Source: Naegleria gruberi
Taxonomy: Eukaryota
Assembly (NCBI GenBank): GCA_000004985.1
Contig: GG738845.1
DNA length: 64,000 nucleotides
Direction: 5' to 3' (one strand)
The translations under genes and the position numbers were made by a program. Below are positions 1,321 to 62,700 of the stretch, in pieces. A model generated the notes under the pieces. It saw only the letters and a list, made by a program, of their open reading frames with translations. It did no database searches and was not told the origin of the DNA. Position 1 is the stretch's first letter; each line of letters opens with the position of its first letter.

Positions 1321-2480
1321 ATGCTTGCTGCTAAGAAATCAGGTGCTGCTACTGCTGCCGACAATAAGATTAAAATTCTCTTCGTCACTGGTAACGAAAA
1401 TAAGAAGAAGGAAGTTCAACAAATTATGGGTGAACAATTCCAAGTTGATTCTTTGGCTATTGATTGTAGGTTTTTTAAATCATCATCATGGAAATTTTAA
1501 TTTAACAATAATTATTATCATAACCATGATTACAATGTTTTAATGAAATATTATTTCACTTATCGAAATTATCAAAATTATCAAAATTATATTTTAACGT
1601 TTTTTGGAAATTGTATTATTGAATTTAAATAGTACCAGAACTTCAAGGAGAAATTGATGAAATTTCAAAGGAAAAATGTAGAATTGCCATTCAAAACGTT
1701 TTGACTGATCCAAAGATTGCCTATAAATATGGTTCCGAACACGTCATTGTTGTTGAAGACACTTCATTGTGCTTTAATGCTTTGAATGGAATGCCAGGTC
1801 CTTATATTAAATGGTTCTTGGAAAAGTGTGGACATGAGGGTTTGAACAAGATGTTGGTTGGTTTTGAAGATAAGACTGCTTCTGCTGTTTGCACTCTTGC
1901 TTATTTCCATCCTAAATGGTTGCAAGAACAATTAAAGACTATGAAGGGACACGAACATATGCATGACCATGGTGAATCTGGTTGTTGTGACCACGATCAC
2001 GAACATGATCATCATGAACACAAGCATGAACATAAACATGAACATGGTGAATCTTGTTGTGATCATGACCATCATCATGAACACAAGCACGAACACAAGC
2101 ATGAACATGGTGAAGAAAAGTGTTGTAAGGGATTGAGCCCAGAGGAATGTTGTAAAAATAAGGAAGGAGCTGAAAAGTGTTGTGAAAATGATGAATGTTG
2201 TAAGGAAGGTGAAGAAGAATGGGAAGATGATTGTTGTGATGATGGATGTGGATGTTGTGGAGAAGTTGAATTGGATTTGAATCCAAAAGTTATCAGAGGT
2301 GAAACCACTGGTGACATTGTTCTTCCAAGATCTGCTGAAGGTCCAGCTTTCGGATGGGATCCAATCTTCCAACCAACTGGTTTCACACAAACTTTTGCTG
2401 AAATGACTAAGGAACAAAAGAATACTATCAGTCACAGATATAAGGCTTTCCAAGCTTTGCAAGCTGCCTTGTTAGAGTAA
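1321..2480 (+). CDS. itpA: Inosine triphosphate pyrophosphatase (ITPase/Ham1 family). Exon 1 1321..1465, intron 1466..1632 (167 nt, GTAGGT...ATAG), exon 2 1633..2480. Carries a roughly 110-aa His/Cys/Glu-rich insertion
   Basis: Exon 1 gives [25 protein letters not shown]...LAID. Exon 2 gives [19 protein letters not shown]...[24 protein letters not shown]...[14 protein letters not shown]...[35 protein letters not shown]. This is collinear with human ITPA. The splice restores the conserved IDLPELQGE motif. Confidence 0.8.
1971..2108 (+). repeat. In-frame tandem duplication (about 75 nt + 63 nt units) inside the ITPase insertion. It encodes [25 protein letters not shown] / [21 protein letters not shown]
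   Basis: Two consecutive near-identical nucleotide units: ggtgaatct(g)gttgttgtga(c/t)ca(c/t)ga(t/c)ca...gaacacaagca(t/c)gaaca(t/c)aa(a/g)catgaacat. Confidence 0.6.
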
Positions 2481-2602: not shown

Positions 2603-4429
2603 ATGAGACAACACTCCCTCGTACATCTTTTATTCGGTAGCAGAAATGATGACACACTGAATGCTGCTGATGATGATCAAATGAGCACCTTTGCTGCCAC
2701 TAATGAGCACGATAAAAATCAAGAGAATATTCTTGTTACAATGATGGTTCTAGCTATTGCTTCCTTTTCAATATTTGCTTCGGAGGAGAGTTTCTTTTTT
2801 CAATCATCAATGATTTATAGATTGATTTTGTTCTTTTTGATGAGTGCAATTTCTATTGGATTACTTCAATTAATTATCAAGTTTGTAAATACTAATGATT
2901 ATTGTAGATATGTGATATATTCCCTCCTCATCATTGTGATTGCACAATTTCCATTTGAAAAGTATTCGAGTTTGAATTTGCATGATGAAAAATTGTGGAA
3001 ACATGATGTAGAGTATTCGACTAAGGTTTTACTACCAACTATATATACGAATGTTACTTTTTCCAAGATACAGCACGAGTATAAACTTGAAGAAATTGCC
3101 AAATGGTACAAAATACCAACAAATGATACCTATCTTGTGAATGAAGATGATTTATTTTACAATTCGATACCAAATGATATGAATTATTGTAATTATAAGG
3201 CTAGTATTGATAGTCAATGGTTTGAATATTTAAAGGCTGCAAAGGACATGACAATTATTCCTCTCAATAGAATGAAAATCTTGGAGAAATTCAATTCTAC
3301 TATGAGTTTCAAACTCTACAAATCAGTCTCCAAAATTCTCAACTCTATCAAATCTGTACATGATTTGACATTAACTAAAACTAGATTGGAGCAGGGTATT
3401 TCAAATGAATGTAAAGGAGATTATTTCAAATTGATTTGGTGGGATTTTAATAAGGAGTCAATTATGAATTGTTCATTTATAATCAAGTTTAACACAACCG
3501 AAAGAACCAAGCACGAAACTATTTTAGATTTTGAACGTCGACAAGTGTTGGAGCCAACAGAGCATACATATATTGAGAATTTGTACAAACCCGAATATAA
3601 ATGGGCAGTTGCAAGGAGGACAATACAAGAAACTGAAATATTTGTAAGCATTCAGTCAAAGAGTGTACATGAGGATTTTTCTGAATTATTCATTCCTTAC
3701 TCTAACGCAACAACCTATTCTTCATCAAGTAAATGTAGAGAGGAAAAACATACAGTTTATTTGGGAGATTTCATAATTAAGAATGAAACGAAATACGAGT
3801 GGGTTCACTCTTATGATCCAATATTATTTTATACTGGAGCAATTATGGCTGCTTTTGCCTTTCTATCAATGTGGATATGTAAAATGTTACTAATTATCTT
3901 GATTGGATTTATTATCTATTATTTAATATTTAATCATCAACAAGCAAATGAAGAAGAACACTTAGAGGAGGAAATTATCACGAACATTTTGGAATCCACA
4001 AATCCTGAAACACTTCAACAACCTGTATCATCTTTATCAAATGACATGACATTTTTCAACGTAAATCTTAATGAAGTGAAAATGGAAGAACAGATTGGGG
4101 AAGAAATACTATTGGGACCAGTTATATCATTCGAGGAAATGAGAAATTCCAGAAAATCCAGACCAAACCAATCGAATGATAGTATTAGTCAGGATTCTAA
4201 TGAGGAGGATGAAGAGTTAGGTTCAACTCTTGAACTAGCAGTCAACCCTTCTCCAGCGACATTACAGGAAGGAATTGCAGAACAAACCACTCTATTAAGA
4301 GTGACCAGAAGAAAGAATCCAAGTGTAAAGCGTTCCTTTGAACGAGCCATGGAACCAATTTTAGATATTATGGTAGATGATGATATTATAGAATCATCAC
4401 CAAATCTAAAGAAAATCAAGGAAGAATAA
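2603..4429 (+). CDS. Hypothetical multi-pass membrane protein with an acidic C-terminal tail (608 aa)
   Basis: Long intron-free ORF with ATG in an A-rich context (aaaaaaaatATG). It has several hydrophobic segments (ILVTMMVLAIASFSIF, LILFFLMSAISIGLLQLII, IMAAFAFLSMWICKMLLIILIGFIIYYLIF). I recognise no family. Confidence 0.4.
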   Translation: MRQHSLVHLLFGSRNDDTLNAADDDQMSTFAATNEHDKNQENILVTMMVLAIASFSIFASEESFFFQSSMIYRLILFFLMSAISIGLLQLIIKFVNTNDYCRYVIYSLLIIVIAQFPFEKYSSLNLHDEKLWKHDVEYSTKVLLPTIYTNVTFSKIQHEYKLEEIAKWYKIPTNDTYLVNEDDLFYNSIPNDMNYCNYKASIDSQWFEYLKAAKDMTIIPLNRMKILEKFNSTMSFKLYKSVSKILNSIKSVHDLTLTKTRLEQGISNECKGDYFKLIWWDFNKESIMNCSFIIKFNTTERTKHETILDFERRQVLEPTEHTYIENLYKPEYKWAVARRTIQETEIFVSIQSKSVHEDFSELFIPYSNATTYSSSSKCREEKHTVYLGDFIIKNETKYEWVHSYDPILFYTGAIMAAFAFLSMWICKMLLIILIGFIIYYLIFNHQQANEEEHLEEEIITNILESTNPETLQQPVSSLSNDMTFFNVNLNEVKMEEQIGEEILLGPVISFEEMRNSRKSRPNQSNDSISQDSNEEDEELGSTLELAVNPSPATLQEGIAEQTTLLRVTRRKNPSVKRSFERAMEPILDIMVDDDIIESSPNLKKIKEE

Positions 4430-4513: not shown

Positions 4514-6220
4514 TTAAAATGATTCCCCTGTTCCCATTTGTTGATTTAGTAATTCTTCATCAAGGTAAGAGGTTTGTCCATTATCAAAATCTGTACTCTC
4601 TATTGTAGTTGCTTGGGTATCGTATTGTGAGTATCTATTATTATTTGTGTGGTCAGTAATTGGTTGAGATGGAAGATATTGATCTGAGAATAGTGATAGC
4701 ACATTTTCTGATTTAAAATTCGCAATAACGTTAGCGATTGGATCTTTCAAACGTATTTCATAATCAATTGTTGCCATTATTGTCTTGTTGGCCTTTCCAA
4801 TTATATTGGCAGTTCCCTTAATAACATTGCTTTTGCCATCCTTTATAAATCCGGCTAAAGGAATCTCAACTTGCCCAACAACTTCGCAATTATCTATTGA
4901 GTGAGCAATTGTTAATTGCACCAATATATAACCATTAGCAATATAGTACATAAATAGTGTGTTGTTTTCAAATTCGAATAACTTTTCAAACGCAAGCTCA
5001 TTAGTTATACCGTATGTCATTCCTGATAATTGTGTTTCATGCTTGAAGAAATCAACTGACAAGAAGAATGGAAGATTGCTCCACTCCTTGGAAAAGTGAG
5101 TCATATTTGGCCTAGTGTTGAATAACTTGAATTGACATTGATTTTCAGAATGGGTTTGAACAAAGTTTACCTTAATTTCTCTAGGTTGAGGTAAATCTTT
5201 GTGTAAAATTGTAACCATTCTATCTCCTTCATCTTCTGGAATATATTTTGGCTCTGGCTTTGTTTGGGGCTTTTCCTTTGGTGGTTCTTGTTTAGGAAGT
5301 ACCAACTCTTCATATATAGGTTTTTCGATAATTGGTGGTTTTCTTAGAGTTGGTTTTTCAATAATGATAACTTCAGGTTTGTAATTACTTTTTACAACAT
5401 CGACAAAAGGTTCAATTTCCTTATAGATTTGAACAGGTGGTTTCCAATCCATAATTGGAGGTGGAGGTTTCACTTCTCGTTTCACTTCTGGTTCAATATT
5501 TACTTGAACAGATTGAGCATAACTAGCAGGTTTCTTTTCTATGAGTGTTTGAACTTCTGCCGATATTGTTAATATGGAGTTAGTTTGGGTTGGAACTGAT
5601 TTCTTTTCCTTTTTCTCCATCATTGTCTCCAGCTGAGTTTCTTGATTTTTATACTTGGCAACAATTTTTGTATACTTTACGTGTTGCTCTGAAAATTTAT
5701 CATTCCATTGTTTGATTTCTTGTTTTAATTGTTCAATCAAAGTTTCATATTTTTTGTTTTGTTTCTTTTCCTTTAACTTTTCTGTATCCAACAATGTATC
5801 TTGAAGGTTTTTGTTGACCTTCCTTAGTGATTCAATTTCTTGTCTTAGTTTCTTATTCTTTTCCTCGCTGTCTGATAATTTTGTAATTTCAATTTGTTGA
5901 AGTTGAATTTTGTTTTGGAGCTCTGATGAGCGTTCTCTTTCGTCCTTTAAATCTCGTTCCAACTCTCCTAAACGATTAATTAATTCCTTATGATTATCCA
6001 AAATAAATTTGAAATTATTTTCCAACTGATCGTATTTAGATTGAAGTTGTTTAATCTTGGTATTTTTACTCCGAATTTCATGTTGAAGAGATAATAATTC
6101 CATCTCATGTTGTTGACGCAATTTAATATCATCAGCTGAGGGCTGAATAGGATTTCCTATTTGTTGTTGTTGTTGTTGCTCCCGACTAACAATCCGTGCC
6201 TGTTGTCGTTGTTGAAGCAT
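4514..6220 (-). CDS. Coiled-coil protein: N-terminal poly-Q, a long heptad-repeat region, Pro/Lys-rich repeats, and a C-terminal about 180-aa predicted beta-sandwich (C2-like) domain
   Basis: 568-aa minus ORF with ATG at 6218-6220 in an A-rich context. The coiled-coil region runs ELLSLQHEIRSKNTKIKQLQSKYDQLENN...LQNKIQLQQIEITKL. The Pro/Lys repeats are KPPIIEKPIYEE / KPEVIIIEKPTLRKPP. The function of the C-terminal domain is not established. Confidence 0.45.
   Translation of the reverse strand: MLQQRQQARIVSREQQQQQQIGNPIQPSADDIKLRQQHEMELLSLQHEIRSKNTKIKQLQSKYDQLENNFKFILDNHKELINRLGELERDLKDERERSSELQNKIQLQQIEITKLSDSEEKNKKLRQEIESLRKVNKNLQDTLLDTEKLKEKKQNKKYETLIEQLKQEIKQWNDKFSEQHVKYTKIVAKYKNQETQLETMMEKKEKKSVPTQTNSILTISAEVQTLIEKKPASYAQSVQVNIEPEVKREVKPPPPIMDWKPPVQIYKEIEPFVDVVKSNYKPEVIIIEKPTLRKPPIIEKPIYEELVLPKQEPPKEKPQTKPEPKYIPEDEGDRMVTILHKDLPQPREIKVNFVQTHSENQCQFKLFNTRPNMTHFSKEWSNLPFFLSVDFFKHETQLSGMTYGITNELAFEKLFEFENNTLFMYYIANGYILVQLTIAHSIDNCEVVGQVEIPLAGFIKDGKSNVIKGTANIIGKANKTIMATIDYEIRLKDPIANVIANFKSENVLSLFSDQYLPSQPITDHTNNNRYSQYDTQATTIESTDFDNGQTSYLDEELLNQQMGTGESF
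6161..6179 (-). repeat. (CAA)6 microsatellite encoding the poly-Q tract of the coiled-coil protein
   Basis: The plus strand reads ttgttgttgttgttgttg. Confidence 0.5.
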
Positions 6221-56707: not shown

Positions 56708-59700
56708 ATGAGGATAAGAAATTATTGCTTCATTGTAATTGCCTTACTGCTACTTTGTTCAGGGGTGATTTTGGTGCGAGGTTTGTCATGCTCAAAAGAA
56801 GAAGATTGTGCTGATTCTTCAGGTTCTTGTATCAATGGAAAATGTGAGTGTTGGAATAACCATAAGACAGGTGATTATTGTGATGTATGCATTAGAGGTT
56901 ACGTTGGTGCCAATTGTGAAGATTGTGCCGCTGGTTTTACAAAAGACCCACAAGATGGGTCAACATGCTTGGCCAATTGTAATCCAGCTTGTTATAGAGG
57001 TGATTGTGTTGGCACTAATCTTTGTGAATGCAATACAGGTTGGGATGGAGCCACATGCAATGTTTGTGCTAAAGGATATAGTGGTACAGATGCTTTTGGC
57101 AATCTTTTATGCGACGTAAAAACCTGTGTTCCTGGATGTGGTTATCATGGAAAATGTGATGTTCCTCCAAGTACTTGTAAGTGTGATTATGGTTGGGAAG
57201 GGGCTGTTTGTAATATCCCTCAATGTTATGGAAACTATGCCTGTGGTAATAACTCATATTGTTCATCCGCTTTCGAATGCTCATGTGTTGAAGGTTATAA
57301 CCAAACTGCAGCTGGTTGTGTGCCAAATGTTTATAATTGTCCTGTACCATGTGGAGATCATATGAAATGTAACTCTTCATTACTTTGTGCATGTGAACAA
57401 GGTTATGATAGTATCAATGGTGCTTGTTACAAAACATGTCCTTCTAATAGTGTTAGATCTGGAACTGATTGTGTTTGTGTTGCAGGATATTCCTTAAATA
57501 ATGGTGTATGTGAAAAAGAATGTAAAGACTGTACCAATGGAGTTTGCTCCAATGGAGTTTGTACATGTAATGATGGTTTTGAAAAGAAGGGAGAGTATTG
57601 TTACAAGCCATGTTCAGTATTTACTGGAACAGTTGGTGCTACTTGTGCTATTGGTGGTATTTGTAAAGCTAATGGTCCATTCTTCTCCTGTTCGTGTTCA
57701 GAATCTGGTAAAGAAGAGTTTAATGGAGTTTGCAGAACACCTTGCAATCCTGCTTGTGGTGAAAATACTGAATGTAATGAGAATTCAATTTGTCAATGCA
57801 AATCAACACTCGATCAAGATAAATATTCATTCGATAATGCAACCAGAAAGTGTTATCCAAATTGTACCAAATGCAAATTGGAACATCAAACATGTAACAA
57901 TCCAGATGATGCAAATTGTTTCTGTGACAGAGTGAGAGGTTATTTACCAATTTATGATTCCAATGGAGTTGTCATTTCCTGTGAAAAACCATGCAATCCT
58001 GCTTGTATGGGATATTCACACTGTGTTAATGGTGATCATTGTGAATGTGATACTGGTTATACCAATTATGGAAATGAATATGGTTGTGTGAAAACCTGCA
58101 CATCAGCTTGTATTGGTTTGAGTTGGTGTAGTGACGCTATTTGTTATTGTCCTTCTGGATATCAACAACATAGTAATTCAACAAGTATTTGGTGTGAACC
58201 TGTTTGTTCAACTCCATGTGGTGCTAACATGGAATGTAGTGCTCCAGACAATTGTACTTGTAAAGCTGGATATGAAGTGATTGGAAGTGAATGTATCAAA
58301 TTATGTCCTTCTAATAGTGTTAGATCTGGAACTGATTGTGTTTGTGTTGCAGGATATTCTTTAAATAATGGTGTATGTGAAAAAGAATGTTCTCCAGAAT
58401 GTACCAATGGAGTTTGCTCCAATGGAGTTTGTACATGTAATGATGGTTTTGAAAAGAAGGGAGCTTACTGTTACAAGCCATGTTCAGGATTTACTGGAAC
58501 AGTTGGTGCTCCTTGTGCTGCTGGTGGTATTTGTAAAGCTAATGGTCCATTCTTCTCTTGTTCGTGTTCAGAATCTGGTAAAGAAGAGTTTAATGGAGTT
58601 TGCAGAACACCTTGCAATCCTGCTTGTGGTGAAAATGCTGAATGTAATGAGAATTCAATTTGTCAATGTAAATCAAATCTCGATCAAGCTAAATACTCAT
58701 TCGATAATGCAACCAGAAAGTGTTATCCAAATTGTACTAAATGCAAATTGGAACATCAAACATGTAACAATCCAGATGATGCAAATTGTTTCTGTGACAG
58801 AGTTAGAGGTTATTTACCAATTTATGATTCCAATGGTGTTGTCATTTCCTGTGAAAAACCATGTAATCCTGCTTGTATGGGATATTCACACTGTGTTAAT
58901 GGTGATCATTGTGAATGTGATACTGGTTATACTGATTATGGAAATGAATATGGTTGCGTGAAAACCTGCACATCAGCTTGTATTGGTTTGAGTTGGTGTA
59001 GTGACGCTATTTGTTATTGTCCTTCTGGATATCAACAACATAGTAATTCAACAAGTATTTGGTGTGAACCTGTTTGCTCCACTCCATGTGGTATTAATAA
59101 GCAATGTAGTGCTCCAGAAGAGTGTTCATGCAAGATTGGCTTTGATGACGTGAAAGAGGTGTGTGTTGAATCTTGCCAAGTAGGTTACTCGAGAGCCGAA
59201 GATGATGATAAGTGCTATGCCGATTGTAAAGTCTGTGGAGCTCACTCTTCTTGCTATCACTCTGAATGCGTTTGTGATTTGGGTTATCAAGTAGATGCTA
59301 GAGGTGATTGTTCTTCAGTTGTCCATGACAATAGCACAGGGAATACTACTGCAGGTAATAGTTCTACTTCTGGTGGCTGTGATCCAATATGTAATCCAAC
59401 AACTAGTTCCTGTCTGGATGGAGCTTGTATTTGTAAAGACAATTTGGAAATGATTGGTGGTGAGTGCGTTCATGTTTGTTCTTTAGATTGTGGTATTCAT
59501 GGAATTTGTCAAAATACCACAGGCAGTGCAACTTGTAACTGTACTGATTTCTTTGAAGGAATGGCATGTTCCACCTGCAAGAGTGGTTTTTCATTGATTA
59601 ATGACCGATGTGTATGTGATGATTCTTCAGGTCGTGCTTTGGTGGGTGAGAATTGTATCTGTAACTCTGTAGCCTCGTTTAAACAAGTTGGTACAGAGTG

Positions 59701-62700
59701 CGTTCGTTCTGAACCAAATTGTAGATATGGATGTGGTAATGGATTGTGTAGATTTGTGAATAATGTTACTTCAGACACTGAGTGTGTGTGTTCAGCTGGT
59801 TTCATTTCTACCAATCAATCCAATTGTAATGATTGTGATAGCAATCAAGGCTTGATTCTCTCCAATGGTTTGTGTGTATGCAATGTTAGACTTGGTTTCA
59901 GATTATCAACAATAGATGGGAAATGTAAAATTTCCACACCAATTTGTGCTGACAAATGTGGTAATGGTGAATGTCAATTCGTTGATTCCACAACTGATTT
60001 GGCAGAATGTAAATGTAATGTAGGTTATATGACTGTTCGTGGCTCTGGAAAGATGTGTTCCGAATGTGCAACAGGATACTCACTTTCAAATGGTGTTTGT
60101 AAACTCATTTGTCCTGAAGAATATTCTGGAGATGACTGTTCTACGTATACTCCAACATCTGCTTGTGTGAATCCACCATCAAACTCTCTTTCTTTCTGTA
60201 AATCTGTTGTCTCTTATCAGGTGAAAAATACCTTATATATCCAAGGAGCTCAAAGCCCATCCCAAGCCAAGGAAATGTTCTTTACCAACATGAAATCAGT
60301 AGATGAGGCTGCTAGTAATATCCTCTCTCAAGTATTGAATGAATTTGCAAAACAAAACATGTCTTGTGATTCCAATTGTATTGCTGTATCAACCAAATCC
60401 ATTTGTTACCAATACATTAGTTCATGTTCTGTTGATAATTCCAATGTTGCAGTTGAAAAGAAGCTCTGTAAAAGTGTTTGCAATTACATTTTGAATAATG
60501 AAGTTGTGACTTATCCTGATGTTTATGCTAATAGTTGTAATAGATTACCAGAGACAAATTGTTTTTATGGTACTTATTTGCCTCCAGCCACCAGCTGTTT
60601 TGGAGTTCCTTACTTGAATTCTTCAGTTTGTTCTGGAAAAGGACGTTGTGTCGATACTGACTCTTGTTCATGTAATCAAGGGTTTACAGGTAGAAACTGC
60701 CAACTCCCATTCTGTTTTAACATAGATAGCTCTGACCGTTTGGTTTGCTCATCCAATGGTGAGTGTGTTGGAGTTAACAAGTGTAATTGTAAATCTGGTT
60801 TCACTGGTAAAGACTGTTCTATCATTAATTGTAATGGAAAGAGTGAAGCTGAAGGAGGATGCTCATTCCATGGACAATGTTCTGCTGAGCACAAGTGTGT
60901 TTGTTCTGGTAACTTTGTTGGTGCTTCATGTTCAGAATGTGCAACAGGATTCACTGGAGTAAATTGTGATATTCCAATTTGTAATGGTATCAAAGCTAAT
61001 GATAAGACAGTGTGTAGCTCAAGAGGATCATGTATTGTTGATGGTGGTGAGCCAAAATGTTCTTGCTCCTCAGGATATAGTGGAACCAGTTGCCAAAACT
61101 TTAAATGTAATGATATTGACAGATCTAGTTCAGATGCTTGCTCCAAACATGGTAAATGTATAGCACAAAACACCTGTGTTTGTGCTGGTAATTTCGATCC
61201 GCTGAGATATTGTTCCACTTGTACACCTGCTTTCAATGGAACTGATTGTACAGAGAGAATTTGTTCAGATGAGTTGACTTGTAGTGCCCATGGTAAATGT
61301 AATTCCAATTTCAAGTGTGACTGTCAAGGAAACTGGGTTGGTGATTTCTGTAACCAATGTAAAGATGGATTCGTTGGAACTAATTGTCAATTTGAATGCT
61401 CACCATCAACAAAGTGTAGTGGTAGAGGATCATGCAACATGGATGGAACTTGTCAATGTACTGGAAATAGTATTGGAAAAAATTGTGAACAATGTGCAAC
61501 AGGATGGTTTGGAGCAAAATGTGACTTTTCCATTGATTCCACAAGCTTTGGATTCTCTAGTAAGGGAGATTCTTTATATGGAACTGTTTATTCCAACCTT
61601 AAAAAGAAATTTGCTTGTTCTGACCTTGTAACAACAACTGATATTCTTGGAATTGGTGCTGTATGTGTTTTGAATCCTGAAAAGAGTTCCATGGAAATTA
61701 TTTTAGGTCTCTCTGCATCCGTTAAAATTGGTAGTACTTTACAATTCAAGAAATATTTCGATTCACTTGAAACAACTCAAGTCACAATTTCAACTAAGGA
61801 TTATGTGGCAGTTTCACCACTCGCAAACTTGATTTCAGATAAGCCAAGCGTATCCAAAGCTTGTGGAAAAGTATACTTGGATGCTTCATCATCTGTTTCA
61901 ATAGATCGTAGAACTTTGCTCTTCTCGTGGTCAAATATTTTAGCTCCAACAACACATGATGCAGATACTTTGAATGCATTCCTTTCTTCAGTTACATCTT
62001 CTGGTGTTTATATTGGAGGTGCTGATTTGAGCGTAGGTTCTTACTCAGTCCAAGTAACTGTAACAAGCTCATTCTCTCTTGAAAAATCAACTTCTACCGT
62101 TTCTTTTGATGTATCTGATTTGACATCCCCAACTGTGGCTATTAAGGAAGGTCTTGAGAGTAGTATAATCATTGGTAAAAGTTCCGTCATTACACCAACT
62201 GTAACTTTCCCTTCTTGTTATAAGGGAGAGGGACCAATTAGTTATGTCTATACTTTGGATACCACAAAATCCATAAATGTTGATGTAAAACAAAAGGGTG
62301 AATTATTGATATTTAATGATGATTATACTAAAATAACTGAAGAGGGTGATTATTACTTTATTTTGACCACAACTCAAAAAGGAGCTGCTGATGTTAAGGT
62401 ACCATTCAAAGTTACAGCCAAAGCACTTCCACTTGTTGTTTCTTTCAGTGTTCGTGACATGGTTCAATCTTTTGAAAATGATGTAACTTTCACAATCATC
62501 ACTCGTGACCCAAGCAATCCAAGTAATCCTGGAGGAGATGTTGTCTTGTCATGCACCAATCTTGACACTGCCACAACTTGTGATGGATTTTCAAATTCTG
62601 CAAGTAATATTAATCAAACTACTCGCAGTTTCAAACAAGGAATGCAACCAGGAACTTATATGTTCACAGCAACCTATACTAAGGGATCTAGAAAGTCTCA

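Follow-up and report, generated by a model that had tools for sequence, protein, structure and literature searches.

The ITPase locus of Naegleria gruberi

This study concerns a 64,000-nucleotide stretch of Naegleria gruberi DNA (assembly GCA_000004985.1, contig GG738845.1), referred to here as the window, and an ITPase (ITPA/Ham1) gene within it whose product carries a large internal insertion rich in histidine, cysteine and acidic residues. The window is eukaryotic and AT-rich, with a guanine plus cytosine (GC) content of 34%. An open reading frame (ORF) at positions 1701-2480 of the plus strand, joined through an intron to an upstream first exon, encodes the Ham1/ITPase protein, which is 330 amino acids long when fully spliced. 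The features of the locus are collected in Table 1.

Table 1. Features of the N. gruberi ITPase gene, with positions in the window and the basis for each
Feature	Positions	Strand	Basis or detail
Optional in-frame N-terminal extension, 44 amino acids, from an upstream ATG that immediately follows a TAA stop codon	1189..1320	+	analogous extensions in relatives
ITPase exon 1 (MLAAKKSG...AID), from the annotated Met, ending in codon phase 1	1321..1465	+	join to 1633-2480 gives an uninterrupted ITPase
True intron, 167 nucleotides, GT..AG, GC 17%	1466..1632	+	position common to N. lovaniensis and N. fowleri
ITPase exon 2, with TAA stop and the insertion inside	1633..2480	+	ORF, hidden Markov model match, confident AlphaFold core
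Segment cut as an intron in public model XP_002683257.1, judged erroneous	1861..2217	+	357 nucleotides, GT..AG, GC 39%
His/Cys/acidic insertion, 121 amino acids (WLQEQ...VELDL)	1917..2279	+	human ITPA alignment, ratio of non-synonymous to synonymous substitution (dN/dS)
Conserved start of the insertion, predicted alpha-helix continuing a core strand	1917..1946	+	9 of 10 residues invariant in three species
His-rich segment (HxH runs, GES-CC-DHDH units), length variable between species	1947..2117	+	45 gap columns mainly here
Tandem duplication, copy 1, 25 amino acids	1971..2045	+	Tandem Repeats Finder, codon comparison
Tandem duplication, copy 2, 21 amino acids	2046..2108	+	codon comparison
CC-rich acidic segment, the best conserved part	2118..2279	+	dN/dS 0.028, all Cys pairs invariant

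The spliced product matches the Pfam family Ham1p_like (PF01725) with an E-value of 1e-45 and a score of 156.4 bits (cut-off 22.5); the match falls into two stretches with the insertion between them. The best NCBIfam match was the equivalog model TIGR00042 (RdgB/HAM1), which is tuned to prokaryotic proteins. Its score of 127 bits falls under the cut-off of 145.35, probably because the insertion splits the match. The core is approximately 55% identical to other eukaryotic ITPases in an alignment of 70 sequences, and all of the invariant columns in that alignment are kept in the N. gruberi protein (N25, K28, E51, E90, D91, F288, G289, W290, D291, K311, N312, S315, H316 and R317). Among the kept positions are those that we take to be K19, E44, D72, F149, W151, D152, K172, H177 and R178 in human ITPA numbering. 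Thus, the catalytic core is intact, and hidden Markov model score, conserved residues and fold all place the protein in the ITPase/Ham1 family. No second eukaryote-type Naegleria ITPase was present among the best 120 of 1092 ITPase matches, so this protein seems to be the sole eukaryote-type ITPase (ITPA/Ham1) of Naegleria and its housekeeping copy.

Position and composition of the insertion

The site of the insertion was located by alignment with human ITPA. The phmmer alignment of the N. lovaniensis orthologue with human ITPA (2i5d) is interrupted between human residues 122 and 134, which indicates that the insertion takes the place of an 11-residue hairpin loop formed by residues 123-133. 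An earlier reading of this DNA from its sequence only had described an ITPase with an in-frame insertion at a surface loop of human ITPA, rich in His, Cys and Glu and containing a twofold tandem repeat. These claims agree with our results, the peptide that it quoted is present exactly in the product, and the coordinates that it gave, 1930-2285, are close to those of the insertion proper. The likelihood that a frame of 121 codons stays open by chance at the local base composition is low (p ~7e-5).

The most frequent residues of the insertion are Glu (26), His (23), Cys (17), Lys (12), Asp (12) and Gly (11). His and Cys together make up 33% of it, compared with 2.5% for each of the two residues in the remainder of exon 2. 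Asp and Glu account for 38 of the 121 residues, and only 11 are hydrophobic. Nearly all of the Cys residues (16 of 17) lie in vicinal pairs, of which there are eight.

The insertion can be divided into three parts (Table 1). It starts with a nearly invariant motif, WLQEQLK(T/K)MKGH.H.HDHG. The His-rich segment that follows has 10 His columns that are invariant in the three Naegleria species and seven that vary, and its GES-(G)CC-DH.H unit is present once in N. lovaniensis and in N. fowleri and twice in N. gruberi. The CC-rich segment keeps the motifs EEWED and GCCGEVEL, and one that ends in ECC, across the species. Its Cys pairs are spaced CC-x7-CC-x8-CC-x4-CC-x10-CC in N. gruberi, and the insertion of N. 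fowleri has one additional CC.

A second, smaller insertion relative to human ITPA was noted at positions 1704-1739 (plus strand). It comprises 12 amino acids between the helix ending in ...IQNV and the VVEDT strand, is specific to Naegleria and conserved in all three species, and corresponds to a predicted helix at residues 73-80 in the model of the N. lovaniensis orthologue.

The insertion is coding sequence under purifying selection

The public gene model of this locus treats much of the insertion as an intron. Exons 1 and 2 without positions 1861-2217 match exactly the public 211-amino-acid protein (XP_002683257.1, EFC50513.1, UniProt D2UYP5), which is titled 'predicted protein [Naegleria gruberi]' at NCBI; its orthologues are named 'hypothetical protein' or 'uncharacterized protein' there. 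The exact match identifies the DNA as that of N. gruberi NEG-M. The cut loses 119 residues, including a 15-residue core strand with D128 and C135, both of which are invariant in the 70 aligned ITPases. The GC content of the segment is 39%, which is that of the exons (38-39%) and not that of the true intron (17%).

The homologous insertion is coding in N. lovaniensis (P0001, XP_044546365) and in N. fowleri (P0121, XP_044558154; also CAG4719320), as treated in three independent annotations of these two species. The genomic loci of both species (L001 and L002, respectively) were retrieved, the coding sequences were rebuilt, and dN/dS was calculated by the Nei-Gojobori method. Between N. lovaniensis and N. 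fowleri, dN/dS is 0.046 for the insertion, with 0.028 in its CC-rich half and 0.095 in its His-rich part, and 0.012 for the core. The same two species share 75% DNA identity over the insertion (baseline 52%) and 58% over the true intron (shuffled baseline 53%). When N. gruberi is compared with these two species, synonymous sites are saturated, yet the amino acid identity is 74% in the insertion and 81% in the core. The insertion is 363, 336 and 336 nucleotides long in N. gruberi, N. lovaniensis and N. fowleri, respectively, all multiples of three. All 14 of the alignable Cys columns are invariant. The corresponding figures are 44 of 63 for the other columns (Fisher p = 0.016) and 10 of 17 for the His columns.

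These results bear on the possibility that the segment is an unrecognised intron, or an annotation artefact, and is spliced out as in the 211-amino-acid model. The sequence-only reading had argued against an intron partly on the ground that no frame-preserving GT...AG pair was evident. That ground fails, as there are 164 such pairs within 1900-2300 and the reference annotation uses the one at 1861-2217. The existence and use of this pair speak for an intron, and the proteomic identification described below does not discriminate since it was made against the short model. Splicing would, however, remove a conserved core strand from a segment with exon-like GC content, whose insertion shows conservation at the protein level in three species, in-frame indels, invariant Cys columns and low dN/dS, and which the annotations of the other species keep as coding. 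The public model is therefore almost certainly wrong, and we rejected the intron as hardly credible; here the conclusion of the sequence-only reading holds. The insertion is coding and under purifying selection, and it predates the split of N. gruberi from the lineage of N. fowleri and N. lovaniensis.

The ITPase is expressed in N. gruberi. XP_002683257.1 was identified in whole-cell proteomes by eight peptides that cover 62% of the short model, with a log2 label-free quantification intensity of approximately 30 (PMC9035749, supplementary file 2). Because that search used the short model, peptides inside the insertion cannot be reported from it.

The internal tandem duplication

Tandem Repeats Finder detected a repeat with a period of 75 nucleotides, 2.1 copies and 79% matches at 1953-2108. 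Comparison of the two copies over 21 aligned codons gave 14 identical codons, seven synonymous differences and no non-synonymous difference. Synonymous differences in seven of 21 codons are near saturation for two-fold sites, which indicates that the duplication is not recent, contrary to the recent expansion that had been suggested from the sequence. The duplication is absent in N. lovaniensis and N. fowleri and thus arose in the N. gruberi lineage. The pattern of codon differences points to an old, N. gruberi-specific duplication, the two copies of which selection has kept unchanged. The N. gruberi insertion also has micro-repeats of 12 nucleotides.

Distribution and searches for relatives

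The presence of the insertion in other ITPases was surveyed by the distance from the FEDK motif to the FGWD motif in the best 120 of 1092 ITPase matches. This distance is 40-47 residues in approximately 110 other eukaryotic ITPases. N. lovaniensis and N. fowleri have 153 residues there, and N. gruberi has more. The insertion was absent from every non-Naegleria eukaryotic ITPase in this set and is thus lineage-specific, a point that the sequence-only reading had put forward for checking, and no non-Naegleria heterolobosean ITPase was found among the ten EukProt matches looked up. The insertion therefore goes back at least to the divergence of N. gruberi and N. fowleri.

The insertion does not correspond to an annotated domain. 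No family in Pfam or NCBIfam matched it at E <= 1, aside from a compositional match below threshold to the ZIP transporter family (PF02535). Homology to ZIP transporters was rejected for several reasons: the score was 16.3 bits (E 0.006) against a cut-off of 35.1, the match covered only the His-rich stretch, and the ITPase is a soluble protein. No match was found among PDB sequences at E <= 10.

Larger searches gave no relative. A HMMER search with the CC-rich half against 1.84 billion cluster representatives returned no matches. This negative is weak, since the search missed even the Naegleria proteins; presumably, the representative of their cluster is an ordinary ITPase. Protein searches by word index, made with the insertion profile and with the CC-rich half, gave nothing useful and also missed the known Naegleria positives. 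For example, the N. lovaniensis and N. fowleri orthologues, which a local hmmsearch scores at E 6e-56, were missed by the word-index search. His/Cys modules of low complexity seem to escape this index, which makes its no-match results for them unreliable. A metagenome scan with a degenerate DNA pattern for EECCKNKEG gave no matches, and a metagenome search with back-translated insertion patterns matched 600 patterns, of which tblastn confirmed none. The module has no detectable relative elsewhere, which is a weak conclusion as the homologue searches lacked a positive control.

Literature searches by function, accession number and composition found no publication on the insertion of the Naegleria ITPase. 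In a paper on copper in N. fowleri, metallothioneins come up only with regard to other organisms and in a yeast cup2 complementation assay, and the word metallothionein is absent from a 2022 paper on copper in Naegleria.

Predicted structure

AlphaFold2 models were made of the N. lovaniensis orthologue, with the 70-sequence alignment, and of the N. gruberi exon-2 product. The ITPase core of the N. lovaniensis model has a predicted local distance difference test score (pLDDT) above 90, and the N. gruberi model agrees. Foldseek aligned the N. lovaniensis model with human ITPA (2I5D/2CAR) with an E-value of 9e-23, a target-normalised TM-score of 0.85 and a root mean square deviation of 2.0 Å. The start of the insertion is predicted as a helix that spans residues 140-151 of the N. 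lovaniensis model and residues 93-108 of the model of the N. gruberi exon-2 product; along it, pLDDT declines from approximately 84 to 54-60. Apart from this helix and a second short one near (S/T)PEECC, the insertion has pLDDT values below 50. These low values fit an insertion that would be disordered when free of metal.

N-terminal extension and neighbouring genes

The public models of the Naegleria ITPase start at the downstream Met, upstream of which an in-frame extension is present in N. gruberi (Table 1). Analogous extensions of 59 amino acids in N. lovaniensis (L001 3824-4000) and 79 amino acids in N. fowleri (L002 2764-3000) were noted. All three start at an in-frame upstream ATG, are basic and rich in Ser and Thr, and contain hardly any acidic residues before the (E)ENK-ML junction that they have in common. 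Open frames of 44, 59 and 79 amino acids would arise by chance with probabilities of approximately 0.03, 0.01 and 0.002, respectively. The extension looks like a possible mitochondrial presequence that could be used through alternative initiation. The Naegleria ITPase is not among the proteins listed in the mitochondrial proteome supplements of PMC8134430, the files of which may be truncated.

An NHL-repeat gene and an ABC transporter gene lie before the ITPase gene in N. lovaniensis and N. fowleri, and a gene with an RNA-dependent RNA polymerase domain comes after it (L001 5153-8827 and L002 4215-7134, both on the minus strand). The downstream neighbour in N. gruberi is a different gene, a 608-amino-acid ORF with hydrophobic stretches at 2603-4429 (plus strand), possibly a membrane protein; thus, the local gene order is not conserved. 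Two other ORFs lie nearby on the minus strand, one of 118 amino acids that is rich in Gln and Pro (326-682) and one of 568 amino acids that is rich in charged residues and coiled-coil-like (4514-6220). Further along the window, at approximately 56800-61300 (plus strand), there are EGF-like Cys-rich repeats with two near-identical stretches of 40 amino acids, CEKPCNPACMGYSHCVNGDHCECDTGYT(N/D)YGNEYGCVKTC, at approximately 57980 and 58850. Their similarity suggests a tandemly repeated extracellular Cys-rich gene or a recent segmental duplication.

Proposed function of the insertion and alternatives

The insertion is most readily interpreted as a metal-binding region. Its content of His and Cys (33%), its invariant Cys pairs, the HxHxH runs, the scarcity of hydrophobic residues and the predicted disorder all point in this direction, and we infer metal binding as the best reading of the composition and of the pattern of conservation. 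The tip of one beta-hairpin in the central sheet carries a segment of 112-121 residues that is translated and maintained by selection. According to this proposal, the segment would act as a flexible module with multiple sites for transition metals. The short conserved helix would be followed by the His-rich stretch of variable length, whose HxHxH ligands would suit Zn or Ni, and then by the CC-rich stretch. The latter would be metallothionein-like: its surroundings are acidic, and its vicinal Cys pairs, seven of which are invariant, could form thiolate clusters for Zn, Cd or Cu(I). The module would be disordered without metal and would condense around metal ions.

Such a module could tie the ITPase, a Mg-dependent and thiol-sensitive enzyme, to the metal or redox status of the cell. 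Human ITPase depends on Mg2+ and reaches its highest activity when a reducing agent is present, and Cd2+, Co2+ and Ca2+ inhibit it (PMC5075207). Given this sensitivity to metals and thiols, a local sink of high capacity or a sensor for soft metals or oxidants would be a plausible benefit. Inhibitory thiophilic metals might be trapped before they reach the active site or, alternatively, the activity or assembly of the enzyme might be switched on metal loading. The insertion may also contribute to the buffering of cytosolic metal in an amoeba for which the copper papers cited above report no metallothionein. On balance, we lean towards the view that the Naegleria ITPase carries a selected insertion which acts as a metal-binding module and couples the enzyme to metal or redox status. 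A broader version of this proposal is possible, though doubtful. In it, the ITPase would have two functions, with an orphan metallothionein-like and His-rich module making an abundant cytosolic, and possibly mitochondrial, enzyme into a metal buffer or sensor, so that, in this bacterivorous amoeba, fluxes of Zn, Cu or Cd either gate the sanitation of the nucleotide pool or are kept from it.

Several observations weigh against a metal-binding function. The insertion matches no metal-binding family in Pfam, NCBIfam or PDB sequences, which leaves composition as the sole basis for metal binding. The abundance of the protein was steady between copper-chelated and copper-replete N. gruberi (0.27 log2, q = 0.52; PMC9035749), which speaks against a copper-specific role. 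In addition, the His-rich part differs between species in both length and sequence, a behaviour seen in low-complexity regions, and none of the N. gruberi peptides, which come from a search against the short model, covers the insertion. Lastly, the low pLDDT may merely reflect the depth of the alignment, which is three sequences over the insertion.

Three other explanations were weighed against the metal-binding module. The insertion may be a tolerated low-complexity expansion, produced in a surface loop by replication slippage, that is harmless and without a function of its own. Such an origin would account for the length differences of the His-rich segment between species, the duplication found only in N. 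gruberi and the 12-nucleotide micro-repeats, and it would be compatible with the absence of a fold in the AlphaFold models, of homologues in the searches and of a response to copper. A neutral loop would not be expected, however, to have dN/dS values of 0.03-0.05, which approach that of the catalytic core, or to keep every alignable Cys. Nor would it explain why old duplicate copies differ by seven synonymous and no non-synonymous changes, or why the start helix, EEWED and GCCGEVEL are kept across species whose synonymous sites are saturated. For these reasons, we regard a functionless expansion as unlikely.

Selection on the Cys pairs could also reflect redox chemistry, with the vicinal Cys residues serving the ITPase as a thiol/disulfide or Fe-S switch or as a sacrificial antioxidant and with metal binding being incidental. 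Deaminated and oxidised purine nucleotides build up under oxidative or nitrosative stress, so that a redox-responsive ITPase would have a rationale. The seven invariant CC pairs are in agreement with such a role, as is the dependence of the highest ITPase activity on a reducing agent (PMC5075207). A pure thiol switch, however, leaves the 17-23 His residues, and especially their HxHxH pattern, without explanation, and no motif of a known Fe-S or thioredoxin-fold protein matched in Pfam or NCBIfam. A redox module therefore appears quite unlikely. The remaining explanation is a targeting or interaction module, in which the CC pairs would be S-acylated or the acidic His-rich loop would dock to a partner or a compartment. 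Vicinal Cys residues are often sites of S-acylation, and the loop is exposed and flexible in the predicted models. The setting is strongly acidic, with Asp or Glu at nearly a third of its positions, and is without the hydrophobic or basic residues that usually flank acylation sites, and we consider this explanation very improbable.

Implications

The results correct the reference gene model of N. gruberi, as 119 residues, a core strand among them, are missing from XP_002683257 / D2UYP5. This error affects proteomics searches as well as structural and functional inference from that entry. The results also describe a conserved, selected and hitherto undescribed His/Cys module in the genus to which N. 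fowleri belongs, a pathogen whose metal homeostasis is being actively studied. Human ITPA is without the loop. In an enzyme that is conserved in other respects, the loop is thus specific to the parasite and a possible handle on N. fowleri.

Comparison with known systems

The Naegleria ITPase has the same fold and the same catalytic and substrate-binding residues as human ITPA and yeast Ham1 (PF01725; PDB 2CAR, 2I5D, 2J4E). It differs from human ITPA at two sites. The human enzyme has only the hairpin loop 123-133 where the Naegleria protein has the 121-residue insertion, and it lacks the 12-residue extra helix before the VVEDT strand.

Metallothioneins, which include protist forms with Cys doublets, are one of two groups of proteins that the insertion resembles. 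The CC-rich half is approximately 24% Cys, has one aromatic residue (Trp), is predicted to be unstructured when free of metal and has repeated Cys groups at short spacing (CC-x7-CC-x8-CC-x4-CC). However, no match to a metallothionein family was found (Pfam and NCBIfam at E <= 1, PDB sequences at E <= 10). Also, the Naegleria module is very acidic and is an internal loop of a 330-residue enzyme rather than a small free-standing polypeptide.

The other group comprises the His-rich metal-binding tails or loops known in HypB, SlyD, UreE and Hpn and the cytosolic loop of ZIP/CDF transporters. The likeness lies in the HxHxH runs with Asp, Glu and Lys. The Naegleria host, however, is neither a metallochaperone nor a transporter, and its His runs are interleaved with CC pairs. 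Judged by its sequence, the insertion resembles the metallothioneins and the His-rich metallochaperone tails in composition and belongs to neither family. The Naegleria ITPase is a known enzyme that bears a new internal loop.

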